DNA from: Schmidtea nova | Taxonomy: Eukaryota | Length of the DNA: 64,000 bases | Assembly: GCA_044892505.1 (NCBI GenBank) | Contig: CM097883.1 | Coordinates: forward strand, 306,714,001 to 306,778,000 | Direction of reading: 5' to 3' | Shown here: positions 31,862 through 54,604 of the stretch, piece after piece | Layout of the letters: the number at the start of each line of letters is the position of its first letter | How positions within the stretch are numbered: position 1 is the first letter of the stretch | Notes under the pieces: generated by a model | Database searches by the model: none | What the model was told of the DNA's origin: nothing | The model's input: the letters and a program-made list of their open reading frames with translations, nothing else | Translations under genes and position numbers: made by a program

Positions 31862-31940
31862 TTTCTATCTTTACATAGGAGTCAATACAGCTTGACGCTT
31901 TTTATTTTACATCATCTATTTACAATTGGTTTCCGCTCAT

Positions 31941-32459: not shown

Positions 32460-32462
32460 TCT

Positions 32463-33002
32463 TTACACTTGGTGAGTTAATTTTTTAATTTTCTTGGCTT
32501 GTTCCCTGATGAATTGTTGTCTTTTCTTACTCCATACTTTATTTGACGCTTCTTGACTGATCTTTTTCCCTAATTCTTCTTTTAATTCATCGATCTCTTT
32601 AAACAGTTTCCAATCATCGCTGTACGCTGTTCGTTCTATTATCTCCCTTGCTTCCTTGTAAGAGTCTTTTGCCTCTTTTTTCCAATATCTTGCTTGTTCT
32701 GTGATTGACTGAATCTTATGGTCTGTTTTTATCTGTTGTCTATCCCTATCCTCTCGTCGCTCTTTCATCATCCCTTTGTAGTATTCGTTTTGTTGTCTTA
32801 GCAGTTTGTAGACTTCTTCTATTTTTTCTCGACTTCTTTGATTCGATTTCTCGGCTTCTCTTAGTGCTTGGGTTTGTCTTTCTAATTCCTCCTGTTTTCG
32901 ATAATAGGCGTGAATCCATATCCCAATCCGCTCCATGTGATTTCTGATCATTTCGTCTTGATGTACGGTTACTTCTTGTAAGGTTACCTCTATATTTCCC
33001 AT
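32463..33002 (-). CDS. Accessory coiled-coil protein (179 aa)
   Basis: E/K/R-rich helical ORF ending 3 nt before the next ORF begins. Confidence 0.7.
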   Translation of the reverse strand: MGNIEVTLQEVTVHQDEMIRNHMERIGIWIHAYYRKQEELERQTQALREAEKSNQRSREKIEEVYKLLRQQNEYYKGMMKERREDRDRQQIKTDHKIQSITEQARYWKKEAKDSYKEAREIIERTAYSDDWKLFKEIDELKEELGKKISQEASNKVWSKKRQQFIREQAKKIKKLTHQV

Positions 33003-33113
33003 TTCTATAATTACAGATAAAAGAATATTTAATCAGTTTTTATTTTTATTGTTTTTGATTATTTGTTATTTCATATTGTTTTATACAGTTTATTTACATG
33101 GTTACTTCCTTCA

Positions 33114-34490
33114 TTACGCCAACCATCCTTTTCTATCTGTTTTCTCATGCCTCTCCATCTCTATGTATAGCGTGTCTGCATATAGTCGCTCCCATAGGTT
33201 TTCTTTCCTTATAAACATTGGTTCTCCTGCTGCTAGTCCGCATTCCGTTGTTGGTTTTTCACTTGTACTCGTATGTTTGTCTGTTTCAAAGAACTTTTCT
33301 ACTGGTTTTCCTATACTTTTGATTCTTATAATGACTCCTACTTTCAAGGGCCATTCTATTAGGTCATCGTATTCTCCTTTACATAACGAGAAGAATATTG
33401 ATACGTGTGTTCCTTGTCCTCTTCCGTCTCCATTTGGGTAGACCTTCAATCTTATTTTAACCCCATTTTTCCATAAATAAAATGGTGGGCTTATTACTGC
33501 TGTTTTCGTCATATTTCTGGCTTCTGCTAGTTTGTCTCTGAAATCTGTTACTTTCCATAGGTAAGGTGCGATTGGTAAGTCCCTTCTTTCGTCAATTTCT
33601 CGTATTAGTTGATTATATTGTATTTTCATTCCTTTTCCTAATTCTTCTATGGCTATTATTTTCTTTTCCATTCTTTCGCGAGTTAGTTCAAACTGCTCTC
33701 TTGTTTCTAGTAGTAAACTCATCATTATCTTATGTGATTCTACTTCTTTTTCTAATTTCTGGATTGTCTGTTCTGTTTCTTTTGTCGTTTCGTTTGTCAT
33801 TTCCACATGCGTTAGTGCTGCTTCTTCCAAGTGTTGTTTCATTGTTTTTCGCGTCCGCTTTTCCTTGCATCCATGCTTGTTATATGGACATTCTCTTGGC
33901 CTTTCGGTACATATTTTCCAATGTTCATGTAACTTTATTTCTTCTGTTATTTCGCAATTGTTTGGACATTTGCTTATATATTGTCTGCATACTTTCTCCT
34001 CTGTTATATTTAAGTGTTCTTCTTCGATTTTTCTCCTTGTTTCTCGAGTTTCACAATACTCGCATGCGATTTCTTCTTCTTTACATTCTTCCTTGTGTTG
34101 TTCTCTCTTCTTTAGAGTTATTGTCTGTTGGCATTTCTCGCATTCGGCTCTCTTTTCCTCGCATTTTTCCATATGGTTTTCCAGATTACTTATTTGTCCT
34201 TGCCATGTACAAGGTGTATTTACGCACTCCGTTGTGGTGCTCATAATTTCTCTTTGGGTTGCTTTGTCCATTCTAGTTTCATCCAACACTATTCTTCCTT
34301 CCTTACATTCTGGGCATGTTGTTATTCCTGTTGCATCTAATTCTTGTATACATTTTGTACATATTCTACATCCACATATCGTTTGTCTGGGTTCTCGCAA
34401 TAAATTATTACATTTTCCGCATGTGAGCCTCTTGCTCCATTTTCTGTTTTCTAATCTCAAGATTTCGATTACCCGTTCATCTCGGTCCAT
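33114..34490 (-). CDS. TRAF-family protein (RING, TRAF zinc fingers, coiled coil, MATH/TRAF-C), intronless, element-encoded
   Basis: RING CGKC...CGCRICTKC...CPEC (Cys in place of the usual His); zinc fingers CxN..C...H...C; MATH motifs YLWKVTDF, SPPFY and VYPNGDGRGQGTHVSIFFSLCKGEYDDLIEWP. Confidence 0.93.
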   Translation of the reverse strand: MDRDERVIEILRLENRKWSKRLTCGKCNNLLREPRQTICGCRICTKCIQELDATGITTCPECKEGRIVLDETRMDKATQREIMSTTTECVNTPCTWQGQISNLENHMEKCEEKRAECEKCQQTITLKKREQHKEECKEEEIACEYCETRETRRKIEEEHLNITEEKVCRQYISKCPNNCEITEEIKLHEHWKICTERPRECPYNKHGCKEKRTRKTMKQHLEEAALTHVEMTNETTKETEQTIQKLEKEVESHKIMMSLLLETREQFELTRERMEKKIIAIEELGKGMKIQYNQLIREIDERRDLPIAPYLWKVTDFRDKLAEARNMTKTAVISPPFYLWKNGVKIRLKVYPNGDGRGQGTHVSIFFSLCKGEYDDLIEWPLKVGVIIRIKSIGKPVEKFFETDKHTSTSEKPTTECGLAAGEPMFIRKENLWERLYADTLYIEMERHEKTDRKGWLA

Positions 34491-34581
34491 TTTCTACAAT
34501 AATATATACATTCGACCTGTCATTTATTTTTGGTTTTCTTGTTTTTATTTTTACATATTTACAGTTTTTCGCTTTATTTAT

Positions 34582-34938
34582 CTATGGCTCATTCGTTGAA
34601 TCTGGTTCCGCTTCGTTGTTTAATCTATTTATTACCCAACTCATCCATCCTTCTTCGGATCCTTCTCTTTCTCCTCGTGTTAAATGGTTTATTTCTATTG
34701 CTTGTCTTTGATTGGTGTTGCTTATCGTTTGATTTTCCCTGGTGAGTTCAGTTATCGCTCTTTGTTGTTCCTCTATTCTGTGTAATTGTTCGAAACAATT
34801 GTTATAACTTTCTGATAGTAACATTTGTTTTTCCGCTAGTTGGTTTTGTAATGAGTTGACTGTTCTTACTAGTAAATCACATTGTGCTTTCCATCTCATA
34901 GCCATAGTTATTTCAGTGGTTTCGTCTTGTTCGGTCAT
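34582..34938 (-). CDS. Accessory coiled-coil protein (118 aa)
   Basis: Heptad pattern; ATG in a TAG-AAA-ATG context. Confidence 0.65.
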   Translation of the reverse strand: MTEQDETTEITMAMRWKAQCDLLVRTVNSLQNQLAEKQMLLSESYNNCFEQLHRIEEQQRAITELTRENQTISNTNQRQAIEINHLTRGEREGSEEGWMSWVINRLNNEAEPDSTNEP

Positions 34939-35063
34939 TTTCTAAATTATATACATCATTTACTTTGCTTTTCTATCTTTTTACAATGTTTATAATATCG
35001 ATACCCATACTATTACGGTAATGCTTTGTTATTTACACTATTATTTACAGTCATAATCCGCCC

Positions 35064-35882
35064 CTATACCATCATTATCGTCTTTTCCTCGTATCGTTCT
35101 TCATCTTCTATTTGTTTCCAGAATTCTTTACCTTTCGTTTTTCTTTGGAATTTTTGCTGTATCTCTTCTGGTATTTCTATTCTTTGCTTCATAATTTTAA
35201 TATCTGGCCATTGTATGTCTGTCGCTTTGTTTCTCCTTCTGTATCTCCAATATATTATCATGCTTGTCGTCATTATCCCATATGTTATTAATATTCCTAT
35301 ACTGATTAGTCCTATTACTGTTTTTCCCCGGTTTGTTGCTTTGATTTTCTTCTGATTCGCTTTTATCTCATTTTGGGTTTGAGCCTCTGGCTTCTTCTCT
35401 TTCTGTATTTGACTCTTGACTTTGTTCATTACTTCTTGGGTAGACCAATGGCGGTTTAGTAGTTGTTTGACGTTATTTTCTTTTGTTCGGTTTTTCATGT
35501 TTCCTGGTTCGATCTGTTGTTGTAGTTTCTCTGAGATCTGATATAATCCGCATTCTGGTTTTTCCGAACCTTTTCGGGTGAAGGTACATATCGCGTATGT
35601 CCTATTTACTTCCATTTTCTTTAATTCGACTTTTTCTTTATTCCCTGTTTCTTTACAGTGGGTTAGGTTACCTTCTTCTCCTTCTGGGTTATGTTTTGTC
35701 CAACATATTCCTTTCACTGTCTGATCAAGTCCTGTTAATGTCAGAGTTCTTTCTGTTTTGGTTAATTCTTTTTCATCGAATTTCAGAATTTCTCCTTTTT
35801 GGAATGTCTTGCACTTTTCTATTCCGGGTTGATCTTCTTGGATTCCTTTCTCCCATATACATATATTTCCTTCTCCGTCCAT
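35064..35882 (-). CDS. True C-terminus of the polyprotein (FN3-like domains, TM, cytoplasmic tail), put out of frame by the duplication/frameshift
   Basis: Repeats the last in-frame 90 aa of ORF 35773-41838, then continues VNRTYAICTF...CGLY and TM TVIGLISIGILITYGIMTTSMIIYW (35247-35321). Confidence 0.85.
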   Translation of the reverse strand: MDGEGNICIWEKGIQEDQPGIEKCKTFQKGEILKFDEKELTKTERTLTLTGLDQTVKGICWTKHNPEGEEGNLTHCKETGNKEKVELKKMEVNRTYAICTFTRKGSEKPECGLYQISEKLQQQIEPGNMKNRTKENNVKQLLNRHWSTQEVMNKVKSQIQKEKKPEAQTQNEIKANQKKIKATNRGKTVIGLISIGILITYGIMTTSMIIYWRYRRRNKATDIQWPDIKIMKQRIEIPEEIQQKFQRKTKGKEFWKQIEDEERYEEKTIMMV

Positions 35883-36289
35883 TTGTATTTCTTGTATTTC
35901 GGTTTCCTTGTTTGTTTGTGGTTCGTCGCTTGTCTGAACTTGGTATGTCCTCTTCCATTTTCTTTAATTCGACTTTTTCTTTATTCCCTGTTTCTTTACA
36001 GTGGGTTAGGTTACCTTCTTCTCCTTCTGGGTTATGTTTTGTCCAACATATTCCTTTCACTGTCTGATCAAGTCCTGTTAATGTCAGAGTTCTTTCTGTT
36101 TTGGTTAATTCTTTTTCATCGAATTTCAGAATTTCTCCTTTTTGGAATGTCTTGCACTTTTCTATTCCGGGTTGATCTTCTTGGATTACTTTCTCCCATA
36201 TACATATATTTCCTTCTCCGTCCATTTGTATTTCTTGTATTTCGGTTTCCTTGTTTGTTTGTGGTTCGTCGCTTGTCTGAACTTGGTAT
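35596..36289. repeat. 348-bp tandem duplication with a 5-bp deletion (attta) near the junction, causing a frameshift
   Basis: tatgtcct-attta-cttccattttc at 35596 versus tatgtcct-cttccattttc at 35944; the copies are otherwise nearly identical. Confidence 0.9.
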
Positions 36290-39200
36290 TCTTTTTGTTC
36301 GTTGTACCATCCCCAGCATATTTTGTTGCTACTCCGGCCTTTTCTCCTTATTGTCATGGCCATTTGTTCTATTGTTATTCCTTTATTGATACGTTTGGAC
36401 ATTGCTAGTATTAACGCTATGCATACGACATCTTGTTGGGGTGATGCTCCTTCTCTCGTGTTAGTTATGCTTCTCTCCCCTTCTCCTGGTTTATCCGTTG
36501 TGTTTCTTATCTGAGTTGCTGGTTGCTCTATTGTGTTTTTGATTTCTTTCTTTGTTGGTTTTACTCTATACCATTCAAGTCTAGGCGTTTCATATTTCTG
36601 GCATACGACTGTCTTAGGTAGCCCCGACTTCTTTTCCTTTTCTATTATGCATATCCGATGCATGGTTCCTCCATCCATTTCTTCTATTCGTACGATATCC
36701 TGGTCGGATTTTCTGATTATGCATTTTAGTGGGTTATTTTCTCCAATTGGTTCATCTTCTCTATACCAACATATTTTCTCGACTTCCTGGACATTTATTA
36801 CTTTTATCCCTGTCTGTGGGTTTATTGCTTCTTCCCTATTAATTAATGTCAATATTATTGTTAGACCCAACCATTTTGAACTCTGCGGTAGGCTTCTGGT
36901 CCGCCTTTCATATTTTTCCTCTTCGCCTTTAATCTCTTTTATTTCCTTGTCTTTGTTGTTTATTCCTAGTTTTCCGCTTTTCGCTTCTTTCTTATTTGGT
37001 TCTTCTCGTGCTCTTTCTTCTAGTATTTCTACTCCATGGCTTGTATTATCTATATTTATCCATTGGGTTACCGATTTCTTTGGGTTTATCTTGCGTATCC
37101 ATATAGCTGATAACGCGATTATTACTGGTATGATTGCTGTTAATATTCCTAAGCCGATTAGTTCTTTAATTTCTTTATTCTCGTCTGTTTGTATAGGTTC
37201 GCTTTGGTTGAACATTATTCCGTATTGTCCCTTTAGTTTTCTCATTAATTGTTCCCGTTCTTCTTGTTTTCTTTTGACTTCTTTGATAACTTCTTCGGGT
37301 GTCCATTTTGCTTGAGGGTCGATTATTATTTTTTCTGCGTCCATTTGTTCATTCGTTTGGCTTAGTTCCCTGAATTCGAGTTTCCTTGTTATTCCTTTTG
37401 ATGTCGCGTTTACTGGTGTATAGTAGGTTTCGCATCTTTCTTGTTGGTTTCCTAGTGCGTCCATTATTTCTATTGCGCATACTTCATACTCGCTATTAAA
37501 TTGTAGTTTTTCGATCTTGATTTCTTTATTTGTTTTTCTGCATTCTCTTGATTGTCTTCTTATATGTTTCTGTACTATTATCCAACATATTTCTAATGTT
37601 TTATTCTCTATTTTCCATAATGTTAGAGTTGCTGATGTTTTTCTCTCGGGTTTCGTCGTAACTTCTTGGTTTGTTGGTTGTTTATTGTTTTTAAAGGTAG
37701 TGGTGTACTTCGGTTTTCCTTTGTTTCGTTGTTTCCTTCTGTTTTTCTGTGTTAACGTTTTAGTTCTTGTTCCGGATGAAGTGGTGTATATTCCGCATTC
37801 TAGGTCGTTTATCGTTATCTGATCATTTTTCTTTACCAAACATATTTCGTAAGTTTGTTTCCTTTCTAAACCTTTTATTTGTATCGTCGTTGCTCCTGTG
37901 CTTGTTCGACATTGTGGTGTCTTTCTTTCATTCGTCTCTTTTTCGTACTTCCTCCAGCATACTCCTTTCACATTTGGTTCTATTTCTTTTATTTCTAATG
38001 TTATGTTTAGTTTCTGCTTGATTTGTTTATTTCTCTTTCTCGTTCTCCTTCTGAACTTTATTACTTCTCCAGGTTGGAATGTTTTACATTTTGTGGTACC
38101 TTTCTTGTTTGTCTCTTTTTCTAGTAGGCATAGTTTGTACGTCTTATCTGCTTTTACTTCGGATATTTTAATTACTTTATTCGTTGTTGGTTTTCGACTT
38201 TTCCTTATTTCGTTTACGCCGATTTCCTCGTTGTTTCTCGCCCAACATTTTATGTTAGTATTCTGTGTATCTTCTACTTCTGTTATTGTCATAGTTTCAA
38301 TTTCTATTCCTTCCTCTAATCGTTTTATCATTATTAGTATGAGTGCTAAACATAATACTTCCATTTGGTAAGACACTCTTTCGGTTTCGTTTGTGGCGAC
38401 TCTTGCTTCAGGCCTCTCTATTGTAATTCGTATAGTTGGTGTTGTTTGCTTATCTATTGCCTGGGGTTTGTTGTTTTCTGTTCCCTGTGTCTCTGTCCTT
38501 CCACATTTTCCGATGATGTAATCTCCTTTGGGTGACTGTTGTATTGTCATGGCTGCTTTAGGTGTTTGGTATTTTGCACATGCGATTGTGTTGTGTGATC
38601 TTGGATGCTTTTGTTTTCTAACGGTGCATATTTTGTACCAGGTATTTAGATCTAGGTCGTTGATCTCTATGATTTCTTGCTCGTGTTTTGAGATTCTGCA
38701 ATCCATCGGTCTATTTTGTTCCGTGATTTTGTCCTTTTTTGACCAACATACTCGTTCGATTCCTTTTGCGTTTTTTATTTGTATTATTGCCCTTTCTTCA
38801 CATGTCATTCCTTGACTTGGATTAATTAACGTTAAAATCACTGTTAATAATAGTAATTCTGGTTTGAAGAATGGTTTTATGGTTGATTTATAACCTGTTC
38901 TTTGGGTGTCATTTTTATCTCCTTGGTCGTTTTTTCCTGGTTCTCCATCTTCATCTCTTTGTTTTTCGTCTTCATTTTTCTTTTCTTCCTTGTCTCGTTT
39001 CTTGTCTTTTCTCTCGTTTTCTTCTTTATCGGGTGGTTCGTGATCGTTTGAATTTTCTGAGTTGTTACCGTCGTCACTATCTGTATTGTCATCTTCCCCT
39101 GGCTCGTCGAAAATGTCGTCCTCGACATTGATTTCTTCTATTAGTTTCGCATACGCTAATGTCGTTAGATTACTTGCCTCAAACTCTTGTGTTTCTACCT

Positions 39201-41871
39201 GTTCTGGTATTACTTTGTTAGTGGATTTATATTCTAAGATTTCCTTTTTGGCCTTGATCCAATTGTTGATGTATGTCTTCATCAACTCTTTCCATTTGCC
39301 TGTGTACTTTTCTTCCTTCGGGCTGGTTGTGATCCTTAAATCCTTTCTTTCCATAAACATCTTCAATATCTCTGGCCATTTATACGTTATTAAGGCACTT
39401 CTTATGCACCAATTTTGGTTATGTTCTGTAAACTCATTAATCCTGAATGCTGGTTCGTTAGTATTCGGATTTATCCACGTAAGTATTGCTTCTGTTAGTT
39501 CGACATTATGCATCATTGTTAGTACACTGGTTTTCCTGACCGTATCAGTTAGGTAATCTATTTCTTCCTGATTTGAGATTGTTTTAATGAAGTTGACCAT
39601 TTCCCAATTATGTGTTAGTAATGCTACATCCAGAATTGAATTTTCTTTATCTGTCTTTCCGGTAAGTCCTGCACCTGCTTTGTATAGTTCTTCCAACACT
39701 TTTGTTTTCGTTTTGGCCCTTGCTGCAAATATCATGAGTGTATCTCCTTTCTCGTCTACCATATTCATGTTGCTTCCGCAGTTTAGCATTATTCGTGCAA
39801 TTTCCATTACTCTTCTATCTTTGCCATTTCGTAAAGCTCTATGTATGGGCATTATTCCGTCCTTTGGTAGTAAAAATGTTACTGGCATCTCCTTTTTTAT
39901 ATTCGTTATATCGTTACCATTGTATGTTCCTTTTGCGTATGCGTGTACTTTTTCAACTAAGGCACCGAGTATTTCTAATGCGTGTTGACAATTCTCGAAT
40001 TCTGGTAGCAACTCCTTTGCTTTTTCTTGTATCGCATCTAGTCTAGCTTGGTATGGTGCTTCTGCTTTGAAGAGTGGTGTGAGTTTCTTGTTACTTTCTC
40101 TTTCTTTTCTCTCCAAAACCTGTTTGCATTTTTCGGGGTGGTTTAGGGTTTTTACTAGTTCTTCATACTCATTTATTATCGTCTGGTATTTCTCGTTAAA
40201 ATTGTTTATGTCTTTGTATGTTATTAGTTTATCCAGCGGTTTCGCACACCATTTCCTAATCTTGTTGAATAAGGCTTCCTTCTCTTTATCAAATTTGTGT
40301 TCCTCTTCATTCTTTGTGATGTATATGTTTCCTCTGTCCAGTAAGGTTAGTAATGTCTTTGGATCGCAAATAAATTTCAAAAGGTATCTTAACAACGCGT
40401 TTTGTCCTTCGCTGTATACTTCGTTTATGTCTAAGACCCATGTATCCTCTTCTGGTCGTTTCCATTCGATTAACTTACGGATCGTATTACATTTGCCAAT
40501 TTTGATTGCCTCTTTGATAAGGTCTCCTTTTATTAATTCGTCTATTTCCCACGTGGAGTTTGCTATTATATATTCCAACATAAGTTGGTGAGAACTCCAT
40601 ATCGCGTGATTTAGCACTGTTTTATCTTCTCTATCTCGTTCTGTCCAACTGAAACGGGCTTTTATCAACAGATCTACCATTTCTTTATCTGCTTGGTAGA
40701 TGGCTGCTGTCATTAATGGAGTTTCCTGTTCACGATTCCCAACGTCTAGGTTTTGGTTTGTTTCTTTTGCGATTTTCAAGAATTCTTTTGCTCTTTCAAT
40801 GTTTTTACACTGAATCGCATTATGTAGGGCTGGTTGTCCTCCTACATCTTTTAATAAGAGTATTTCAGGGATTTTTATCAATAATTCAGAAATAATTGGT
40901 TCGGTTGGTAATCCTTGTGCGTAACGGCTAATTATGTGTCTAATGTCCCTTGATATGCCTGCTTCGTCTCTAACATGCCATCTTCCCATTATTTCTCTCG
41001 CCTTCAATAGGATTTCTTTATTTCTGATTTCTTTTTGCCTTATTTCTGTTTTGTCGTCTTCGCTGGTGTTTGCTCTGAGCATGTTTATCCTGGCTGTTTG
41101 TGATCTGGTTATTATTCGATTCTCTGGTGTTGTAGTTATCGTTTTAGGCACCTTCTTACATCTGCAGGTGTTTACATATATGGGTCGTATTAATGGTCGG
41201 TTTATTAGCTTAACTTTGGCATTATTGTCCTTTTTGTATATAATTTCATAAGGTCCTCTTCCAGGTCTTTGGAGTTTCTTAACCGTTCCTGGTATTATTT
41301 CGGGAGTTTCTATTATCACCCAGTCTCCTGGTTTTAGGTCGTTCGCTTTAACGTTTTTCTTCTGGTCGTGTAAGTCCTTATAACTTTCCTGATAAAATTT
41401 AATGTTGAGTTCTGCCGTTTTCCATATTTCCTGCATTCTTTCTTTGAATTTGGTTACGTAGTCGTCATCTTCCATATATTGCGATAATGGTGGCTGATAC
41501 TCTAAATCTATGGGCATGTTGCATTCTCTTCCATACATGAGTTGAAACGGGCTTAGTTTTGTTGCTGCATGTATCGACATTCGGTATGCCATTAAACATA
41601 ATTTTATGTATTCGTCCCAATCAGTTTGGTGTCTGCTGACATAGTTGGATAGCATTCTAATCAATGTACCATTGAATCTCTCTGTTTGTCCATTCGTTTG
41701 TGGGTGATATGGTGAAGTTCTCAATTTTGCTATTCTGAAATAGTTTGTCACCTCGTTCAATAACTCACTCATAAAATTAGTTCCTTGGTCTGTGAGTATT
41801 TGTTTTGGAGTTCCGTATCTGCAACATATTTCTTCCACTAGAATTTTTGCTACGGTTTTTGCTTTTTGGTC
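35773..41871 (-). CDS. pol: Polyprotein part 2: integrase core + GPY/F, ankyrin repeats (two clusters, ~40460-40850 and ~39300-39860), acidic linker, duplicated FN3-like membrane cassettes; same frame as part 1 after a TAA
   Basis: TDQG-35-E (GQTERFNG) and GPYEII. ANK-like PALHNAIQ, TPLMTAAIY, PIHRALRNG and DTLMIFAARA. Hydrophobic segments at 38809-38862, 38317-38358, 37099-37161, 36826-36873 and 36388-36429. Confidence 0.92.
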   Translation of the reverse strand, partial: DQKAKTVAKILVEEICCRYGTPKQILTDQGTNFMSELLNEVTNYFRIAKLRTSPYHPQTNGQTERFNGTLIRMLSNYVSRHQTDWDEYIKLCLMAYRMSIHAATKLSPFQLMYGRECNMPIDLEYQPPLSQYMEDDDYVTKFKERMQEIWKTAELNIKFYQESYKDLHDQKKNVKANDLKPGDWVIIETPEIIPGTVKKLQRPGRGPYEIIYKKDNNAKVKLINRPLIRPIYVNTCRCKKVPKTITTTPENRIITRSQTARINMLRANTSEDDKTEIRQKEIRNKEILLKAREIMGRWHVRDEAGISRDIRHIISRYAQGLPTEPIISELLIKIPEILLLKDVGGQPALHNAIQCKNIERAKEFLKIAKETNQNLDVGNREQETPLMTAAIYQADKEMVDLLIKARFSWTERDREDKTVLNHAIWSSHQLMLEYIIANSTWEIDELIKGDLIKEAIKIGKCNTIRKLIEWKRPEEDTWVLDINEVYSEGQNALLRYLLKFICDPKTLLTLLDRGNIYITKNEEEHKFDKEKEALFNKIRKWCAKPLDKLITYKDINNFNEKYQTIINEYEELVKTLNHPEKCKQVLERKERESNKKLTPLFKAEAPYQARLDAIQEKAKELLPEFENCQHALEILGALVEKVHAYAKGTYNGNDITNIKKEMPVTFLLPKDGIMPIHRALRNGKDRRVMEIARIMLNCGSNMNMVDEKGDTLMIFAARAKTKTKVLEELYKAGAGLTGKTDKENSILDVALLTHNWEMVNFIKTISNQEEIDYLTDTVRKTSVLTMMHNVELTEAILTWINPNTNEPAFRINEFTEHNQNWCIRSALITYKWPEILKMFMERKDLRITTSPKEEKYTGKWKELMKTYINNWIKAKKEILEYKSTNKVIPEQVETQEFEASNLTTLAYAKLIEEINVEDDIFDEPGEDDNTDSDDGNNSENSNDHEPPDKEENERKDKKRDKEEKKNEDEKQRDEDGEPGKNDQGDKNDTQRTGYKSTIKPFFKPELLLLTVILTLINPSQGMTCEERAIIQIKNAKGIERVCWSKKDKITEQNRPMDCRISKHEQEIIEINDLDLNTWYKICTVRKQKHPRSHNTIACAKYQTPKAAMTIQQSPKGDYIIGKCGRTETQGTENNKPQAIDKQTTPTIRITIERPEARVATNETERVSYQMEVLCLALILIMIKRLEEGIEIETMTITEVEDTQNTNIKCWARNNEEIGVNEIRKSRKPTTNKVIKISEVKADKTYKLCLLEKETNKKGTTKCKTFQPGEVIKFRRRTRKRNKQIKQKLNITLEIKEIEPNVKGVCWRKYEKETNERKTPQCRTSTGATTIQIKGLERKQTYEICLVKKNDQITINDLECGIYTTSSGTRTKTLTQKNRRKQRNKGKPKYTTTFKNNKQPTNQEVTTKPERKTSATLTLWKIENKTLEICWIIVQKHIRRQSRECRKTNKEIKIEKLQFNSEYEVCAIEIMDALGNQQERCETYYTPVNATSKGITRKLEFRELSQTNEQMDAEKIIIDPQAKWTPEEVIKEVKRKQEEREQLMRKLKGQYGIMFNQSEPIQTDENKEIKELIGLGILTAIIPVIIALSAIWIRKINPKKSVTQWINIDNTSHGVEILEERAREEPNKKEAKSGKLGINNKDKEIKEIKGEEEKYERRTRSLPQSSKWLGLTIILTLINREEAINPQTGIKVINVQEVEKICWYREDEPIGENNPLKCIIRKSDQDIVRIEEMDGGTMHRICIIEKEKKSGLPKTVVCQKYETPRLEWYRVKPTKKEIKNTIEQPATQIRNTTDKPGEGERSITNTREGASPQQDVVCIALILAMSKRINKGITIEQMAMTIRRKGRSSNKICWGWYNEQKEYQVQTSDEPQTNKETEIQEIQMDGEGNICIWEKVIQEDQPGIEKCKTFQKGEILKFDEKELTKTERTLTLTGLDQTVKGICWTKHNPEGEEGNLTHCKETGNKEKVELKKMEEDIPSSDKRRTTNKQGNRNTRNTNGRRRKYMYMGERNPRRSTRNRKVQDIPKRRNSEIR

Positions 41872-47800: not shown

Positions 47801-50800
47801 GTTACTTGTACTGTCGTAGGTAATTCTTGTATTCTTTCGAAAATGTTATCGTCTTTTTCCTTTGTTAGTTCGGTTAATTCTTCTATCATATCGTCGCTGT
47901 CTGTTAAAATTTCGTCCACGTCGTATGGTTGTGGTGGAGTCATTTCTCTATTCCCTCTGGGTGTTGTCTCAGATCGTCTTGAACTTGTCCCTGGCGTTGG
48001 TACTGATTTCATCGGGCTCGGCGTACTTATACTTCCGTGTGGTTTATGGTTTTCTTCTTTACGTTTTAATGGTTGACCTGCTATTGCTTCTACTGTCAAG
48101 GTATTCATGAGATCTAGTTGTGCTGGCGTTATTCCGATTTCCAAACTGTTATCTAATGATCGTCCTTGGTGTTGTAAATGGAATGGTGGTTCGTATCTCA
48201 ATTTCTTTTTAATATCTCGAATTTTTTCTGCTATTCCTACCCACAATTCTTCCTTATCCTTGTTTGGATATATTATTCTTAAATGCACTTTTTGTGGAAT
48301 TTCCTGCGAGAATTCTTGATTTCTCCATTTCCTAATTACGTGGTCTAGTTGTTCCGGGCACCACTCGTTAACTCTTTTATATTCTGCGATTGCCTTTGCC
48401 ACTTTACGCAAGCATGTTATATCTTCTCCATTAACCACGAAAAAATCTGCGAGACCTTTTATTATTTTTCTCTTACCGTGCGCATTAGTTTTTAATAATT
48501 CGACAAATTCCTCCGTTTTTTGCTTTTCCTTTTCTAACCATATGGCCACTGTTTCTGGTCCATCTAGGTCTATTGGCGTGGCTTTCCTTGTCACCATGCA
48601 AACCCTTCTCATTTCCGGTTCGCAGTCATATTCCATTCCTCTTTCATATTCTTCTTCATATTCCCCTTCCTTTGGTACCCAACATTTTCCTTTCTCGTTC
48701 CATTGTTTTTCTACGGGTGTTCGTCTTTGTCTGTTGAGATTGAGTTCTTCTAATACATTTTCCCACTCTGGCCAAATTCGCCAATTTCGATAGATGTCTA
48801 CTATTTGTTGTAATTTGCGCACAACTTCTTTCCGTCGTTCCCGTTCTCTTTTCTCATCTTTAGCAGTTTCTCTGGGTGTATCGTCCATTCTGATAACGTG
48901 GATGGTTTGGTGATTATCCCATATACCGATTTTATATAGTCGTCTCTCATCGTGATCCCATAATACATGTTCGTTATATTGTATGATTATGTCGTCTTCC
49001 CATTCGTCTTCTGGTTCTCTTTGCACTAGTGTCTCGTTGATGACATTTATTAATTCTTTAATGGTGCAATCCGCTACTACTTCAATTTCTTTGGTGTCTT
49101 CATTAGGCAATTCCACTGAAATTTTTAGATCTGTTATTTTCCCTTGTCTGAACATTGTTTTTCCCATTTTTGCGATTAATTTGTCGTGTGAGATTTGTGA
49201 CCATCTCGTATGACTTGTGTCACGTATGCACTCAATACATTGTTTCAATTTCTCGTATTCGCTTCTCATTAACTCCTTTCTATGTTTTTTGACTTGTGGT
49301 ATGATTTGCTCTATCAGGGAATTTAGATTCTTTCGTAAGACTCGTTCTTTCTCGTATTCTAACCGAGGTTTTATTCTCCTTTCAAAGCACGTGTTTGCTT
49401 CCCTTGCAACTTCTTGTAGGTTCTCTTCTTCCTTCTCATCACATATTGATAACAGAGTTATTTCTCCTGGCCATATACCTGTTTCTACTAAGTGCGTTCT
49501 TTTCTTTACGAGTCTATTCTGCGAATAGATGAATTTGTTTTTATATGAGCTCCCTAGTCTATCCTCTACCCATCTGTAGATATCGTCTGTAAATGGAGTT
49601 TTGATCCAGATTCTTGGTGTAGATGTATTTATTATTATTGAGATGGTGTAATTGAGGAGTGGTTCCTCTATTAATTTCCCTACGTATCGATTTAACATGT
49701 CCACTTCCCGATCTTGTAACCATTCTTTGTAGTTCATTTGTAGTAATGCTTTCATGAATTTCCGATATTGTTTCTTGTCCATGAACTCTTCGTTATATAT
49801 TACTTCTAGCGAGTTATCTAGTAATTTCTGGATTTCATCTACTTTTATCTGTGTAGGTTCTGAGGTCTTTATTACTTTTATCTCTTTGTTTTCGTCTTCG
49901 GATTCGTTTAATATGTCTCCTGCTAGGCTACTGATGTCGCTATCTTCTTCCTCATCGGAAAACTCTCTGGCGGTATTTCTTAACATTTTAATATGTGCTA
50001 TTTGGTTCGTTTCTCCTTGTATATTCTTCGTTGGTTCTGGTTCGTTTTTGTCAATCTCTGGTGTTGGTTCCCTCTTGTCCTCTATTACTTCGACTTTTCT
50101 CATTTTCTTCTCCAACTCGTCTATCTCTTTCAAACGTCTTCTTATCATTTTTCCTTTAAATATTCGACTGATTCGGGTTTCGCGACGCACTGGTGGTGGA
50201 ATTTCTTCTGATTCTATTTCTTTGATTCTCATCACATTTCTTTTTGTCTCTGTTACTCCCATGTTTTCCCATATATCCGTTAATTTCAATTTTACTGATG
50301 GTGCATCTCCTATTTGTAAGAACGCTTCTCTGGGCAGTTTCGTTACTCCTGGAATCATCTGGTTTACTTTATTGAATAGTATTTCCACCTTTTCTTTTGC
50401 GTTATATTGGAATCGAAACACATGGTCGTTGGGCATGATTACCATCATTCCTTTTTTCCAAATTTTCCTTCTCTCTTCTTGGTTTATCTTAGTTTCCTCT
50501 TCCTTTTCTACTTCTTTTTCTACTTTCTCATCTTTTTGTACTATTTCTTTTCCACTTTCGTTGTCGGCTGAATTCATTTCTAGTGTGGTTTCTTTTTCGC
50601 GAGTATCTGTTTGGTTTGTTGCTCTTAGCATGTTGATTCTTAGAGGTTGTCGCTCTCTTTCTTGTTGTTTTTGTTCGTCTTCTCTTTGTATTCTTGCCCA
50701 TTCCTGAGCGTGTCGTGCTTGACTTTCTCGATTCAATCGTTCGTTTTCGCTTTCTATTTTTCTCATCATGCTAATTTGTTGTTGGTTGGTTTGCGGATTC

Positions 50801-52302
50801 CCTCTCGTCGTATTGTTTATAAGTTCCGTCAATCTTTGAACTTCTTGCATCAAATGTATTTCTTTGGTGGTAGTTTTGTTCTGATTATTGTTATTATTGG
50901 CTTGTTGGTTTCCATAATCTTGTCGATTTGCAGTATTTGTTTGATTTCCGTAATTTGGTCGGTTTCCGTTGTTCTGCCAATTTCCTCGTTGATTACCTTT
51001 TTGTCCGCAATTCCTTGAGTAGTGACCAGGTCGTCCGCAATTAAAACAGATTATCGTAGAACATCTACTCTCCGAGTGTCCTTTAACTCCACATTTTCCG
51101 CAATTCAAATTTTGATAGCATTCTTGCTGCCAATGTCCCAATTTTCCACATGTTTTACATTGTTTTGTTTGTCCTTGAGGATTGTAATTGTTTTGGTTTC
51201 TAAAGTTTTGCACTTTATTTCCTTCGTTCCTTCGTTGAGGGGGTGGTCGGTTTAATTGTTGCGAATTTGGAATGTGATTGTTGAGATTTACTTCTGGTTC
51301 GGTTTGCGCCGTGTCCATGGCCAAATAAATTCTACCCTCACTTCCTATCATATGCAGTTCGAATCTGTTAGCTGTTTCTAGTGCTTGGTCTAAGGTTTTA
51401 CATCCTTGGCATCCCACTTGTGCTCTTATGTCGGGTCTTCTTAGTCCTCCTATGAAGATAGCTGCCATTAACTCCTCGTTTATTGGACCTCCATCCTTGA
51501 ATACCGATTTTGCTAATTTTTTCAGTTCGCTCGCGTATACCGCATTAGATTCATTCATCTTTTGTTTCCTCATTGAAAATTCTATGAATGCTTCGCTTAG
51601 CACTTTATTTATCCCAAATGTTTGTTGGAAAAAGTCCTTTATCGCTGGCCAGTCTGCAGGTGGATTTGTACCGTTTTTTGCTTCCAAATATAGGTCCAAT
51701 GCGCTATCTTTCAAATATAACTGTATTCTACTTGCTGTTGTCTCAGCTTTCCATTTGCATACTTCCACAAATATGCCAAATTCCTTTAAAAAAATTTCTA
51801 ATTTACTCGCATCTCCGTTAAACGGTTCTCCTGAAAATTTATCCTTTATTTCTTCTCTTGGTTCACCCATTTCAATTCCGCTGTCTTGAGTTATTTTACT
51901 TTCGTTTCCTCTTGTTTCTAGTTCGTTGTTATGTTCGTCTTCTGTTCCACTCGAGCTTGAATCGCTTTCAGTTTCTCTTATTACTACGTTATCTGATATT
52001 ATACTTTCGTTATCACTCTCGTTGGTTTCTACCTCTGGTTCTACCTCGTTTTCTACTTCTTCGATATTATCGTTGTTAGTTTCGTCGCTTTCTATTTCGC
52101 TTGTTTGGTTCTCCTTGGGTTCCGCTTGGTTCTCTTTGTTACTTGAGCTGTTGCTTACTACTGACAATTTATCGTTTTCGATAATTGATTTATCTCTTAT
52201 TATTTTCCTCGCTTTACTCCCTTGTGGGTTTTTGTGGTTATCTTTGCCGGCTTTCTGCTTTTTTGTTGGCTTTATTGCGACACTCTTTGCTCCTTTTCTC
52301 AA
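41872..52302 (-). CDS. gag-pol: Polyprotein part 1 (3476 aa): Gag - Ubl-like - Bcl-2-like - glycoprotein - protease - RT - RNase H - integrase N-terminus
   Basis: Capsid-like PFNGD...FLKEF (~51330-51845); three CCHC knuckles (51007-51160); DTG (44479-44487); YIDD (43261-43272); LATDASGYAAGAVL, TDHQPL and NANADCMSR; HHCC (H..GGH...CLTC). First in-frame ATG at 51870. Confidence 0.96.
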   Translation of the reverse strand: MRKGAKSVAIKPTKKQKAGKDNHKNPQGSKARKIIRDKSIIENDKLSVVSNSSSNKENQAEPKENQTSEIESDETNNDNIEEVENEVEPEVETNESDNESIISDNVVIRETESDSSSSGTEDEHNNELETRGNESKITQDSGIEMGEPREEIKDKFSGEPFNGDASKLEIFLKEFGIFVEVCKWKAETTASRIQLYLKDSALDLYLEAKNGTNPPADWPAIKDFFQQTFGINKVLSEAFIEFSMRKQKMNESNAVYASELKKLAKSVFKDGGPINEELMAAIFIGGLRRPDIRAQVGCQGCKTLDQALETANRFELHMIGSEGRIYLAMDTAQTEPEVNLNNHIPNSQQLNRPPPQRRNEGNKVQNFRNQNNYNPQGQTKQCKTCGKLGHWQQECYQNLNCGKCGVKGHSESRCSTIICFNCGRPGHYSRNCGQKGNQRGNWQNNGNRPNYGNQTNTANRQDYGNQQANNNNNQNKTTTKEIHLMQEVQRLTELINNTTRGNPQTNQQQISMMRKIESENERLNRESQARHAQEWARIQREDEQKQQERERQPLRINMLRATNQTDTREKETTLEMNSADNESGKEIVQKDEKVEKEVEKEEETKINQEERRKIWKKGMMVIMPNDHVFRFQYNAKEKVEILFNKVNQMIPGVTKLPREAFLQIGDAPSVKLKLTDIWENMGVTETKRNVMRIKEIESEEIPPPVRRETRISRIFKGKMIRRRLKEIDELEKKMRKVEVIEDKREPTPEIDKNEPEPTKNIQGETNQIAHIKMLRNTAREFSDEEEDSDISSLAGDILNESEDENKEIKVIKTSEPTQIKVDEIQKLLDNSLEVIYNEEFMDKKQYRKFMKALLQMNYKEWLQDREVDMLNRYVGKLIEEPLLNYTISIIINTSTPRIWIKTPFTDDIYRWVEDRLGSSYKNKFIYSQNRLVKKRTHLVETGIWPGEITLLSICDEKEEENLQEVAREANTCFERRIKPRLEYEKERVLRKNLNSLIEQIIPQVKKHRKELMRSEYEKLKQCIECIRDTSHTRWSQISHDKLIAKMGKTMFRQGKITDLKISVELPNEDTKEIEVVADCTIKELINVINETLVQREPEDEWEDDIIIQYNEHVLWDHDERRLYKIGIWDNHQTIHVIRMDDTPRETAKDEKRERERRKEVVRKLQQIVDIYRNWRIWPEWENVLEELNLNRQRRTPVEKQWNEKGKCWVPKEGEYEEEYERGMEYDCEPEMRRVCMVTRKATPIDLDGPETVAIWLEKEKQKTEEFVELLKTNAHGKRKIIKGLADFFVVNGEDITCLRKVAKAIAEYKRVNEWCPEQLDHVIRKWRNQEFSQEIPQKVHLRIIYPNKDKEELWVGIAEKIRDIKKKLRYEPPFHLQHQGRSLDNSLEIGITPAQLDLMNTLTVEAIAGQPLKRKEENHKPHGSISTPSPMKSVPTPGTSSRRSETTPRGNREMTPPQPYDVDEILTDSDDMIEELTELTKEKDDNIFERIQELPTTVQVTNTGETEVEEEIIIEEVNDLTEDETRGANVENVRLTQEMERWLEERANEPRDVTEETGRATRFVETGTGMDRRPRGRPKTDPANVVIRNKDEKRQDQWEVCLKKLNKIAEIKEKETTPICQGEEWISKTIMEILAIIDPELKKYWRITEISEKAKSLHSAIAPILPEFIKEKTKSNHLDWQGTTTLIKKLTEGAETDNKYVIAIAYNIYNLLTLSRGRPKPTALERHIKNTAKIISKEIEPYVINNGGWETFIKTNQKKTQAKNMKKKFEKILEELGKEQAGTRNAKSSMNLSSIIMMMLIWMISTDSATAFEVFDCDQIKLGEKYSLRGTEQCKDATPVELQKIKKEQWYHVYQEAELIKTMVNECKVQKTRFAFYCGRGHYSAIVMPGTEREPIVLQGEDCEALFKHGEVTTRDKIKIKGKPGMMMQQTYYVAGRITGGEGYCQGETYPMFGTLATNLVVMDTYIVELKSYEAFFEPTTGEMKTLSMCKIDRSMCQTGMSTLVYKPKVNECQLQLLQGAQFDEIQGKTFQEEDDDDKARAKHLKEALENKRQLKPDQREKRIEMRATPTVLITTNQDVGMRFIKGKATLKCSTTVYETNYPGIYVSKQEVPNAKPKIDTMDIKLHLYVNNKMDFLFHRGQASLQKVYYDLINNDCILNREILKTKLAVAITNPDSAMPLLPLREGHFGRVVGEAMYVYICEKTHASLAATTQLKPGTCTNELEIDYKGKVRYVQPVTRIINPPGFEPNPFNCSNAYGPLYQKPDGKWVMFPGRSEVIAPREFELMQLSKDRQFSDVDVSNNGIYSPKDLEAARQNILFPARREALLSNIVTITGGTDYREGPNYELLLSPAHFKKATENMMKAMWGRFLIFGQMMAGILGVILIIQIVRVIITQMLACFDIYKREKRVNWKMVVGFLPFLAKTMVLHGHSKDIHRIKRLLKILAKMKRTDEEVGRKFKKIMNDEQARQQLKKERKGLWERMKGYKTQNDSSDDDDDDDDYKGGQVYKNQAPQYIEKNPADAWKCYAPPPTMYQEPLQGGKNGTMQMMPMTNVYPMIPEDYKMRRCRSVDPQGDTHTIAVMSSNTGPVLTTTIEINGREIEAMIDTGANMSAIDIKWIPQEQRREIERTNVHVIACSKEVVEVAGRWWVKIRHLNTEIDTYVAVIPALSVPCIIGTDLMPALFKEIVIDLGTMRLKDRTGQICAIEAKVTSSKQMIIPARKEKICYVKIDPTIQGDMIFEPSKRFEKRKALPMARGLVNINDDGEIPINVVNFDEEDKIIYENERLGKLTPMMDIELPIEGAEKDKEPTWNIDSELLNEDQRKQLEKLLMEYKDIFAASDLDLGTCDVTLHTIPLTDETPIALRPYKLAEAQKAVAETEVKKMLDAEVIEPSCSPWQFPVVMVKKKDGTQRFCIDYRRLNTVTKRDTYPLPDINEMLLTLQGAAYFTSLDLKSGYWQIKMKEEDKEKTAFTIGRDLYQFRKMPFGLTNAPASFQRCMNFVTHGIKQCMVYIDDLLIYSGTFEQHIQDIRDVFVRLRQWKLKLKPSKCDWAKEKVTFLGHIVSAKGKEPDPRNIDKVKECPVPKTITQIQEFLGLCGYYRKFIKDYAGIAKPIQELVKKDVSFIWGDEQQTAFEKLRDKLITAPILVHPDFKKPFLLATDASGYAAGAVLGQYDDEGKERVIGYYSRTFKKHEKNYSVTEREALAIILAIKHFKYLLWGHIICITTDHQPLVWLGQHKETSSRLMRWAMQLQEYSPDIKFKTGRANANADCMSRLTFPELTDPDVQRICVLIAEDLDFSELKKDQQEDRELGQIIEFLTSRNMEVLKDNKELKEHIGKYQHRYIINKGWLLIQDGEKRLMCLPENRRKEIMIQYHDGKLGGHMSEKKTINRMRQKYYWRTMEEDIKEWIKNCLTCATRKDSGKKWKNPLQPMPIPAEPMTTIAMDVIGPLPESLNGNIYILVITDYLTKFPEAFAM
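44800..46935 (-). other. env: Envelope-like glycoprotein domain within the polyprotein (chuvirus/Jingchuvirales-G-like)
   Basis: Signal-like MNLSSIIMMMLIWMISTDSATA (46870-46935), then FEVFDC...SLRGTEQC, a Cys-rich ectodomain, DCILNREILKTKLAVAITNP...GRVVGEAMYVYIC and a TM at 45100-45195. The motif pattern matches my recollection of chuvirus-type glycoproteins; not confirmed by search. Confidence 0.8.
47040..47510 (-). other. Bcl-2-like helical domain within the polyprotein
   Basis: BH2-like IEPYVINNGGWETF (47047-47090); weaker BH1-like NHLDWQGTTTLI upstream. Confidence 0.55.
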
Positions 52303-52891
52303 CTGGATTACTTTTATATTATCAATTTTCTTGTCCTATCTATTATCGTTTTTCTGATTCTTCTTGTTGCTTGATTGATTTGATTGATTTGTATATCTAA
52401 AATACAAAGGTCCTCAACGATACCTTATTGTTATCGTCGCGCTTTTATTCCCTTTCTTTCGGGATTACTTATTACTGGGTTTTCATTATTTCCCATTCCC
52501 AGATTCCCCTTTATTTTTAGTCTATTTAAATTATCTATAGACTGGTCACAATTATCTATTTATGTCGTAATAATTATCTATGTTTTATCAAATCCATTAC
52601 TTTTCCCACAGTTTCCCAATTTATTGGTCGCTCGAGCGCTCTAATTCCCTGAGTCTTTCTGACTCGTTTATCATTTCTATTCATTATTCTCTGATAGCGA
52701 TCGTTTTACTCATTCTGCCGGTTGCTCCGGTCAGCCCAAATTTTTACTATTCTCCTTGCATGCTTTATTTAAGGTTGCATAATCAGCTTTACTCGCATTT
52801 CTTAACTACTAGTGCGCACTATTCTAAATCTCGTCGACGATTACACTATGGGTCTATATTACTATTTATCCGGATATCTCTATAATCCACT

Positions 52892-53111
52892 ATGGCTCTT
52901 TTGGCCTCAATTTTATATCTCACATGGCTCTATTGGCCTCATTTTACTATCTCAAATGGCTCTATTGGCCTCAATTTAATATCTCACATGGCTCTATTGG
53001 CCTTAATTTAATATCTCACATGGCTCTATTGGCCTTAATTTAATATCTCACATGGCTCTATTGGCCTTAATTTAATATCTCACTGGCTCTATTGGCCTCA
53101 AATTAATCTCT
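52892..53111. repeat. 32-bp tandem repeat x7 in the element 5' leader
   Basis: atggctctattggcct(c/t)aatttaatatctcac at 52892, 52924, 52956, 52988, 53020, 53052 and ~53084. Confidence 0.95.
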
Positions 53112-53155
53112 CCATAACGCCTAGCTAGGTCATTCAATAAGGCTCGTTGGCCTCA

Positions 53156-53270
53156 ACCCTTTTTTTCAAGGGACAAACCGCTAATAACCCTTTGTTTCAA
53201 GGGACAACTCTAATAACCCTTTGTTTCAAGGGACAAATCTCCTAACCCTTTGTTTCAAGGGACAAACCTC
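53156..53270. repeat. ~29-30 bp repeat x4, each with hairpin-forming CCCTT-N6-AAGGG, in the 5' leader
   Basis: aaccctttgtttcaagggaca at ~53156, 53186, 53215 and 53244. Confidence 0.9.
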
Positions 53271-53747
53271 GTATAACTTTACTTAACCGGTTAATCACAA
53301 TTCCCTACTTCGCTAGCGATTAAAATTTCTCAGCTGAGTTATAACTACTTCTATGCGAGCTGACTATGCACCTTTTATTCTCTCAAAATTGTCATTTATC
53401 TCTTTATTCTATCATAACTAATTCCTGATCAGTCTGCTTCAACTTTTTATTTATTTTTCTCTATGCGCGCTTTACTCCATCGAGATTTCCCCATCTTTCT
53501 CCCCAACCACAATATACAAAAAGATCGCGTTGGTCTATTAATGCAGGATGTGGTGATCAATCACATCACAAAAACTTTCCAACATTTGCGATGGGCCCCT
53601 TTCTATATACTTGACTAGGTTGATCAATTGGTACCCCTCAATGGATTCTTATCGGACTACTTTGCAGTAGCTCAAAAATTATTTAAATACAATGATTGTT
53701 CCCATGATTCACCATTCGACATTTTACTAATCAACTCTAAACATTTA

Positions 53748-54251
53748 TTACAAATAAACTATAATTTTTTCATTCACAGTAAAGTTGCACATCGGACACC
53801 GGTCACGCTTGTTGGCACAGTTCTTACAAAAACGGAGATGTCCGCAAGGTAAAAACATAATTTGTATTTCGTTGTTTTCACATATATAGCACTGTCGGTA
53901 TTTTTTCGCTGCTTCTACCCCTTGCGCCCTCCATCGATTGTATGTTGGGGTTAATTGTTGTTCTATTTGTCTGCATCTAATGTTTAGCTCCGCATTCTCT
54001 AGTCGTGCTCGGTACCATTTGTAGCGGGTTTTTATGTCGATTTTACTTGTTCTTTCTGTTATCTTTATTAATTCATCTGTTTCTTCGGTCTGTGTTGTGG
54101 GTTCTTGAAATTCAATTTCTCTAAATCGGTTTATTTTCTTGCCAATTGTTGCTAATGTTTCGTTTTCTGTGTTGAGAAATTCTTCGATTTCTTTCAGTTT
54201 TTCCTCCATTTGCTGAATAAATAATCGTTTTAACTTTGTTGTTTTTATCAT
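53748..54251 (-). CDS. Leader ORF: coiled coil + C-terminal C3HC4 RING (IAP/MDM2/Neuralized type), no BIR seen
   Basis: CYICENNEIQIMFLPCGHLRFCKNCANKRDRCPMCNFTVNEKIIVYL at the extreme C-terminus. Confidence 0.88.
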   Translation of the reverse strand: MIKTTKLKRLFIQQMEEKLKEIEEFLNTENETLATIGKKINRFREIEFQEPTTQTEETDELIKITERTSKIDIKTRYKWYRARLENAELNIRCRQIEQQLTPTYNRWRAQGVEAAKKYRQCYICENNEIQIMFLPCGHLRFCKNCANKRDRCPMCNFTVNEKIIVYL

Positions 54252-54254
54252 TTT

Positions 54255-54362
54255 TAAAGTAGTAATATGTCTCGTTTTGTGAATTTAATATTTATTTAAA
54301 GTAGTAATATGTTTCGTTTTGTGAATTTAATATTTATTTAAAGTAGTAATATGTTTCGTTTT
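54255..54362. repeat. 42-bp tandem repeat x2.6 directly upstream of the RING ORF
   Basis: taaagtagtaatatgt(c/t)tcgttttgtgaatttaatatttatt at 54255, 54297 and 54339. Confidence 0.92.
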
Positions 54363-54604
54363 GCATCTTTTAGGGTTTATTTACTCTCCCCGTGTTTCCG
54401 AAAATTGTCGTCCCGACAAATTGTTTATGCATGCATTCGATTTTTATATCTTTACTTTTATTTGCTGTTGTGTTTGTTGTTTATTTTTGTACATCATTTA
54501 GATTTAATTACCAATTTTCTGTTTTTATTAAATTTATTCACACGACACGAGCACTTTAAACTTCTCTGCAGATTTTTCATTCACCTTTTTCCGATAAAAC
54601 GAAG

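Follow-up and report, generated by a model that had tools for sequence, protein, structure and literature searches.

The modules linked to cell death and ubiquitin that an initial annotation had recognized between positions 33114 and 54251 of a 64,000-nucleotide stretch of Schmidtea nova DNA (assembly GCA_044892505.1, contig CM097883.1, positions 306,714,001 to 306,778,000; hereafter the window, to which positions below refer) were all located, with matches of unequal strength, on the minus strand of one Gypsy element bounded by long terminal repeats (LTRs). The element occupies 28031–57587 (29,557 bp) and holds the entire annotated interval. Its two LTRs differ by 2 mismatches over 2,952 aligned bases, plus indels. 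The integrase carries an in-frame stop (41872–41874), which was present in 0/22 other copies, and the region of Cys-Trp repeats is interrupted by a 343-bp tandem duplication (35609–36289), which was absent from 21/21 other copies. This copy was recently inserted and is broken.

We place a probability of about 0.55 on the reading that this is a Burro-type copy whose selected TRAF, RING, ankyrin, ubiquitin-like (Ubl) and Bcl-2-like modules act on host ubiquitin and cell-death signalling, such that cells expressing the element survive. The direction of the effect is borrowed by analogy from Burro1, where survival is attributed to a BIR domain that the window family does not have. The survival idea of the initial annotation is thus supported in part, yet meddling with apoptosis and ubiquitination had already been proposed for Burro (PMC6431247 section 7). 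The additions made here are modest, namely a direct test of purifying selection on each cargo module and a successful family without BIR. Because such a family exists, mutualism through the BIR-RING protein of Burro1 (B-IAP) is not the sole reason for cargo retention.

Architecture and likeness to Burro

The coding order begins with a RING open reading frame (ORF), followed by a polyprotein ORF of ∼5,650 aa which starts with Gag, up to three Ubl domains, an AT-hook-like motif, the Bcl-2-like domain and an in-frame fusion glycoprotein (env). The Pfam match of the latter (PF24664, E 4e-73, 44986–46938) lies between the Bcl-2-like domain and the protease. Protease, reverse transcriptase (RT), RNase H and integrase come next, after which the polyprotein ends in two ankyrin clusters and a set of Cys-Trp repeats that includes membrane segments; five accessory ORFs, TRAF among them, complete the order. 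The Cys-Trp repeats resemble FN3 domains but score below every cut-off, and they form the fastest-evolving part of the element.

In Schmidtea mediterranea the giant Gypsy elements Burro1/GYPSM1 and Burro2–4 are known (Jurka 2007 and Grohme 2018, as relayed in PMC6431247), and Burro is also found in Dugesia tigrina; their motifs comprise MATH/TRAF, BIR, ankyrin, BCL2-like and Ubi2/SUMO-like, with env in frame between BCL2 and protease (PMC6431247 section 7). The window element shares with them a length of ∼30 kb, an internal region of no more than 25 kb, one huge ORF with three CCHC knuckles, the order Ubl, BCL2-like, env, protease, RT, RNase H and integrase, an env of mononegavirus type in frame, ankyrins, TRAF and coiled-coil regions. 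The single ORF1 of Burro, with Gag, two or three CCHC knuckles and the protease to integrase series, is found in the family and is split by the stop in the window copy. The differences are that Burro cargo has a BIR and the window family has none, that TRAF is a full gene downstream of the polyprotein here, whereas in published Burro MATH lies inside ORF1 or, in D. tigrina, in an upstream accessory ORF, and that the large ORF has ∼5,650 aa in the window family compared with 4,873 and 5,140. The FN3-like membrane repeats receive no mention in PMC6431247 section 7. Judged by architecture, which was compared by description, the window element would be a giant Gypsy of Burro type.

Constraint and identity of the cargo modules

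Constraint was assessed among copies of the window family. Of 1,169 candidates in the genome 150 were scored, so that close copies number at least 150; in a by-eye count, ∼35 of these report frames of at least 5,600 aa. Every sixth row (6–144) of the 150 was taken, giving 24 copies represented by three separate stretches each, and 20–24 of these were found per module. Ratios of nonsynonymous to synonymous divergence (dN/dS) were calculated from all pairs with a codon bootstrap after modules had been mapped to the window copy (21–25 sequences).

The ratios of the eight cargo modules fell between 0.02 and 0.26, with an upper 95% bound of ≤0.45 in all eight (Table 1), against 0.42–0.97 in 12 non-coding readings of the leader, 10 of which had intervals spanning 1. 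Stops were seen in 0–1 of 20–24 copies per module, the leader of the RING ORF excepted. Pooled cargo variants shared between copies comprised 151 nonsynonymous and 347 synonymous changes, and private variants 202 and 189 respectively (p 1.2e-10). Neutral decay of the cargo, which the initial annotation had named as a result that would count against it, is refuted by the low dN/dS together with the depletion of amino-acid changes from shared variants; by these comparisons every cargo module is under purifying selection. That the domains are captured passengers in neutral drift is accordingly highly improbable, although two lesions disrupt the window copy and two of the Ubl calls are weak. Pressure to keep the pol frame open cannot account for the constraint on RING and TRAF, because these are separate ORFs.

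The RING ORF had been correctly assigned to the IAP type (zf-C3HC4_3, E 2e-12; top PDB matches cIAP2, XIAP and cIAP1, E 3.5e-11 to 1.3e-9). All 8 zinc ligands are retained in 23/23 sequences, and the hydrophobic, aromatic tail is retained in 22 of 23 rows, with one row gapped. Its start was misplaced at 54251 and is probably the Met at 54209; codon 14 of the longer frame is a stop in 16 of 22 copies. A BIR was sought in the window element and gave no Pfam match in 11 ORFs and no motif in six frames, while the BIR region of a sister family matched it with a best E of 3.0 by tblastn. The gap from the end of TRAF to the probe for the next ORF is only 117–135 bp in 21/21 copies, which leaves no space for a BIR gene there. 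The window family is without BIR.

BIR genes are nonetheless numerous in the genome, mostly as frames of 399 aa (150 scored of 1,295 candidates). Both of the two sites examined lie in the sister family, directly after TRAF, one of them (L008) with a Pfam BIR match of E 4e-17. This BIR-bearing family possesses its own upstream counterpart of the RING-only ORF (27% over 158 aa), and the RING-only ORF is therefore a gene in its own right, not an IAP that has been truncated. Assignment of the ORF at 53748–54251 as a B-IAP ortholog was considered and rejected, there being no BIR in the window family.

TRAF was upheld at full length, with matches to Pfam MATH_2 (E 9.5e-21) and PDB TRAF3 (E 4e-23). 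RNA interference (RNAi) of planarian TRAF is followed by more cell death, as stated in part of PMC7586133, so that survival signalling linked to TRAF has been documented in planarians. A YAG triplet stands 1–3 nt upstream of the ATG in five of six accessory ORFs, compared with 45 of 539 internal ATGs, a pattern that was picked post hoc; RING, TRAF and the other small ORFs are probably made from spliced RNAs.

Profile searches, on which the initial annotation had staked its ankyrin, Bcl-2 and Ubl calls, upheld both ankyrin clusters and the Bcl-2-like region. The further suggestion that the ankyrins mimic IkB is without positive support from these comparisons, as IkB, Bcl-3 or p105 accounted for 0/18 PDB matches of ankyrin cluster 1. 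A search of the genome for the Rel homology domain (RHD) was blank, while a T-box control gave 18 matches. S. mediterranea has no clear NF-kB homolog and seven divergent RHD factors, according to an excerpt of PMC13563047; since the RHD genes of that species are divergent, the blank search is not readable as absence.

Among the putative Ubl domains, Ubl3 stood by its fold, Ubl2 was weak and Ubl1, with no Pfam match of its own, was not confirmed. Ubl3 is predicted to form a beta-grasp (predicted local distance difference test, pLDDT, ∼70) which superimposes on ubiquitin with Z 9.3 and a root mean square deviation of 2.0 over 71 aligned residues. Taken jointly, Ubl2 and Ubl3 gave an ESM Atlas lead at 0.82–0.87, but phmmer searches of PDB with Ubl2 alone or Ubl3 alone returned no ubiquitin match, and profiles of Ubl1, Ubl2 and Ubl3 did not detect one another. 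A joint Ubl profile matches ubiquitin (E 8e-5); it includes the clearer Ubl of a third, compact family (family C) and is not counted for Ubl1 or Ubl2. In a model folded from element-only rows, ubiquitin-like folds were also near the top of the Foldseek matches, none with E <0.001. Ubiquitin-like modifiers that are conjugated need a C-terminal GG, which is absent at the ends of Ubl1–3, and the sequences suggest that these are at most integral Ubl domains.

For the Bcl-2-like region of the window copy no Pfam Bcl-2 match was obtained, ESM Atlas gave nothing usable and the top PDB match was Bcl-xL at E 0.09. A host profile was made from nine stretches of the same genome that match Pfam Bcl-2 in short frames and are presumed to be host genes. 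This profile selected residues 1660–1765 (∼47041–47358) alone among ∼5,500 residues (E 3e-5); its score was 20.2 bits, and the highest score among 500 shuffles was 8.2. The equivalent position in family C is above the Pfam Bcl-2 cut-off (34.4 versus 31.4 bits), and the family C profile reached only E 0.02 against the window region. The top Foldseek matches of the element-only model were Bcl-xL/Bcl-2 (E 5e-3 to 1e-2), with pLDDT <50 in the Bcl-2 part; the single-sequence fold was poor (pLDDT 47) and a VIA search with it found only generic helical matches (best Z 6.4). A Bcl-2 fold with a BH2-like GGW in the window element is supported by these data, with modest scores and a model of low confidence. 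No homolog of the Ubl-Bcl2 region was found among 2,469 scored candidates from protein databases (proteins of 1,917–6,103 aa) or among 1.84 billion representatives.

Related families and the function of the cargo

The BIR-bearing family appears to be non-autonomous. One copy of 23 kb was covered from LTR to LTR, with 3.1-kb LTRs that are 99.8% identical, and gag, env, RT and integrase gave no match in it, while the same queries hit the RT of family C at E 1e-78. The family is present in high copy number (150 scored of 2,954 candidates, the longest frame there being 1,197 aa). Nineteen copies, sampled by drawing roughly one row in eight, were viewed over 10 kb only and contained no match to gag, Bcl-2, env, RT, RNase H or integrase. 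The distance from Ubl to protease was 46 bp and from protease to ankyrin 253–271 bp in 19/19 copies; TRAF and BIR-RING were each found in 13/19, six copies being without TRAF. Values of dN/dS were 0.16 for TRAF, 0.19 for BIR-RING, 0.21 for RING and 0.13 for ankyrin (0.08–0.21 for the cargo overall), 0.31 for the protease and 0.46 for the Ubl region.

On these sequences, the non-autonomous family is the best sign of cargo selection apart from replication, with the caveat that some of its divergence may predate the deletions or stem from recombination with an unseen parent. If such a cargo-keeping family holds, selection for host-directed cargo is separable from selection for replication, and family-specific RNAi would be a clean test of mutualism between transposon and host. 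No helper element was identified for this family, and a helper relation with the window family is not demonstrated, the LTRs of the two having no more than a 33-nt match in common. A possible view, which we advance tentatively and with some doubt, is that Burro cargo is a modular toolkit divided among co-resident families: the window family would have shed the BIR-IAP, and the 23-kb relative would be a cargo-only satellite that spreads by protecting its carrier cells while riding on a helper. On this view the relative would have lost gag, env, RT and integrase but kept protease, Ubl, ankyrin, RING, TRAF and BIR-IAP under selection in very many recent copies. The literature searched, which did not extend to Lee 2026 and Grohme 2018, contained no description of an ORF with RING alone, of repeats resembling FN3 or of Burro families that are non-autonomous.

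Under the reading that we favour, genomic RNA from the 5' LTR would be translated into the polyprotein, which its own protease, together with signal peptidase, may cleave. Signal and transmembrane (TM) segments would thread env through the membrane of the endoplasmic reticulum and then bring the chain back, so that pol and the ankyrins lie in the cytosol. The Gag-Ubl-Bcl2 part would be anchored by the env signal peptide, which would thereby provide the membrane anchor of the Bcl-2-like domain; family C has a like layout. TRAF, as an adaptor, and RING, as an E3 ligase, would be expressed with the small ORFs from spliced RNAs and act on host TRAF/IAP signalling, with the net outcome that element-expressing cells live long enough for the element to replicate. 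Domains of like classes have been captured by other genetic parasites, as in the ankyrin and vBcl-2 proteins of poxviruses, the vankyrins of polydnaviruses and the IAPs of baculoviruses. Unlike viral cargo, the domains in the window belong to the polyprotein of a retroelement or are encoded by short ORFs of their own, and neither an IkB-family match nor a BIR is among them.

The proposal that the element keeps its host cell, perhaps a stem cell, alive has a precedent in related Burro1, whose B-IAP is reported to protect stem cells (Lee et al., Dev Cell 2026, as relayed in part of PMC13465017). B-IAP and the window ORF both have an IAP-type RING on a Burro-type element, with the same proposed benefit. 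B-IAP, however, joins BIR and RING, whereas the window ORF is RING-only and the BIR-RING gene of the same genome lies in the sister family (L008).

Several observations weigh against a survival function. The window family has no BIR, while the reported effect of Burro1 is attributed to the BIR-RING protein. The BH1 motif NWGR, which lines the BH3 groove of pro-survival Bcl-2 proteins, is missing from the Bcl-2-like domain, the aligned position reading ETDNKYV, and the BIR-bearing family is without a Bcl-2-like domain (0/19 copies). Because the copies compared were chosen by their likeness to the Bcl-2-like protein (among its 150 best matches), the dN/dS of that domain is biased towards low values. 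Linkers without a named domain are as constrained as the cargo (dN/dS 0.06–0.12); selection consequently indicates function, not one shared host process, and alone it fails to show that the cargo maps to a single process, as had been claimed. BURRO1 RNA is enriched in the intestine and is derepressed in cells that have differentiated, those of the intestine in particular, and BURRO1 RNAi gave no relief of the smedwi-2 phenotype, both as given in part of PMC8532177.

The same constraint on linkers is consistent with polyprotein modules that serve the particle cycle, in which the Bcl-2-like helical bundle and signal anchor would hold Gag at membranes next to env, Ubl and ankyrin would be scaffolds for processing or assembly, and only TRAF and RING would touch the host. 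The lack of NWGR also fits, as do the place of the Bcl-2-like domain, which follows Gag and precedes the env signal peptide in the window family (A) and in family C, and its loss along with gag and env in 19/19 copies of the non-autonomous family. We regard this explanation as rather unlikely, given that Ubl, protease and ankyrins are retained where no gag or env was found, the ankyrins there at a dN/dS of 0.13, and that the fold and BH2 motif are like those of host Bcl-2 proteins. TRAF and the ankyrins might instead be decoys that damp signalling in innate immunity or stress, a version of IkB mimicry with no part for apoptosis, and poxviral Bcl-2-fold proteins that block TLR signalling would be a parallel. 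Such damping would account for a full TRAF under selection, and, weakly, for the FN3-like membrane repeats as receptor decoys. Polydnavirus vankyrins are free proteins, unlike the ankyrins held inside the polyprotein here, and this difference, together with the lack of IkB-family matches and of a clear NF-kB homolog in S. mediterranea, makes damping quite unlikely, even though planarian TBK1 acts upstream of the induction of TRAF genes (in the excerpt of PMC13563047).

The RING-only protein could also be an IAP antagonist or a dominant-negative E3 that dimerises with IAP RINGs of the host or the sister family, so that the set tunes or promotes death. RING-only fragments of cIAP promote the turnover of other IAPs, and the window protein combines an IAP-type RING and a hydrophobic aromatic tail with no BIR; moreover, RING is kept as a separate gene even beside the BIR-RING gene of the sister family. 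Ubiquitination of a pro-death target by a free RING, via its helical N-part, is equally conceivable, and we consider antagonism very unlikely.

Coordinates and minor features

The positions of all features are collected in Table 1.

Table 1. Features of the window element, from 5' to 3' of its coding strand, and its sister families; dN/dS is given with intervals in brackets
Feature	Position or locus	Strand	Description	dN/dS
5' LTR	54632–57587	−	2,956 bp, TG...CA; two ORFs of ∼212 aa inside, without informative Pfam match	
Primer-binding site	54606–54625	−	complementary to 3' end of tRNA-Pro(TGG) of the same genome	
Accessory RING ORF	53748–54209	−	153 aa; predicted helical N-part, C-terminal IAP-type C3HC4 RING, end IVYL; without BIR	0.18 (0.13–0.26)
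Gag	51007–51870	−	first Met, capsid-like region (Retrotran_gag_2 weak, E 0.0095), three CCHC knuckles	
Putative Ubl1	50221–50472	−	unconfirmed	0.26 (0.14–0.45)
Putative Ubl2	48871–49158	−	weak; Ubiquitin_4 E 0.08	0.05
Ubl3	48061–48312	−	ubiquitin-like beta-grasp; no C-terminal GG	0.02
AT-hook-like motif (PRGRP)	47565–47591	−	retained in 24/25 sequences; also in family C	
Bcl-2-like domain	46981–47463	−	BH2-like GGWETF in 25/25 sequences; no BH1 NWGR	0.08 (0.05–0.12)
env, in frame	45013–46935	−	signal peptide 46873–46935, Monjiviricetes fusion glycoprotein, TM segment	0.06
Protease, RT (YIDD), RNase H, integrase	41092–44559	−	Pfam, Gypsy order	0.02 (RT)
Ankyrin cluster 1	40312–41034	−	polyprotein frame, after integrase; Ank_2 E 7e-11	0.12
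Ankyrin cluster 2	39262–39894	−	E 6e-5, clear yet under cut-off	0.12
Seven Cys-Trp repeats	35259–38868	−	∼85 aa each; weakly FN3-like (E 0.05–0.8); signal-like and TM segments	0.09–0.49
Coiled-coil accessory ORF	34582–34938	−		0.11
TRAF accessory ORF	33114–34490	−	full-length, intronless; RING, zinc fingers, coiled coil, MATH	0.13 (0.10–0.17)
Three more accessory ORFs	31304–33002	−	two coiled-coil, one signal peptide and TM; no BIR gene between TRAF and these	
3' LTR	28031–31082	−	3,052 bp; target site duplication of 4 bp, TTAC, at both flanks	
BIR-bearing non-autonomous relative	G000:C1:54613523-54636811 (L025, L007, L008) and L108–L126		23 kb	
Third compact family (C)	L024, L026–L035		gag-Ubl-AT-hook-Bcl2-env-pol in 3,060–3,080 aa; LTRs ∼1.1 kb	

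The motif PRGRP is presumably AT-hook-like. In the window family and in family C, ∼40 residues separate the BH2-like motif from the env signal peptide behind it (46873–47060 in the window), which stands at the expected place of a Bcl-2 tail anchor. Between protease and RT, at the site of the dUTPase-like region of Burro, lies a 111-aa region with a dN/dS of 0.03 and no Pfam match. At the end of the polyprotein (35259–38868) a unit is duplicated which consists of a signal-like segment, an FN3-like repeat, a second signal-like segment, two or three repeats and a TM segment. The next ORF in family C has ∼830–870 aa and no Pfam match, and neither ankyrin nor TRAF was matched in the stretches of that family examined.

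The accessory ORFs at 32463–33032 and 31304–31864 differ in frame from most copies (18/20 and 11/20 respectively), and two coiled-coil ORFs of the window element both match a single 527-aa ORF of the BIR-bearing family. The ORFs inside the LTRs, two in each, lie at 55126–56542 and 28521–29934. The leader contains tandem arrays with units of 32, 29 and 42 bp (52860–53280 and 54253–54363); it diverges among copies by ∼0.03–0.06, well under the synonymous divergence of the ORFs, and seems to be constrained. Genes for tRNA-Pro(TGG) form a long tandem array of 308-bp units elsewhere in the genome (G000:C1:459608206-459656577, L127), and 899 pattern matches were counted genome-wide. Outside the element, two inverted G/C-skewed regions with ORFs (1–4400 and 13500–15300) are 69% identical.

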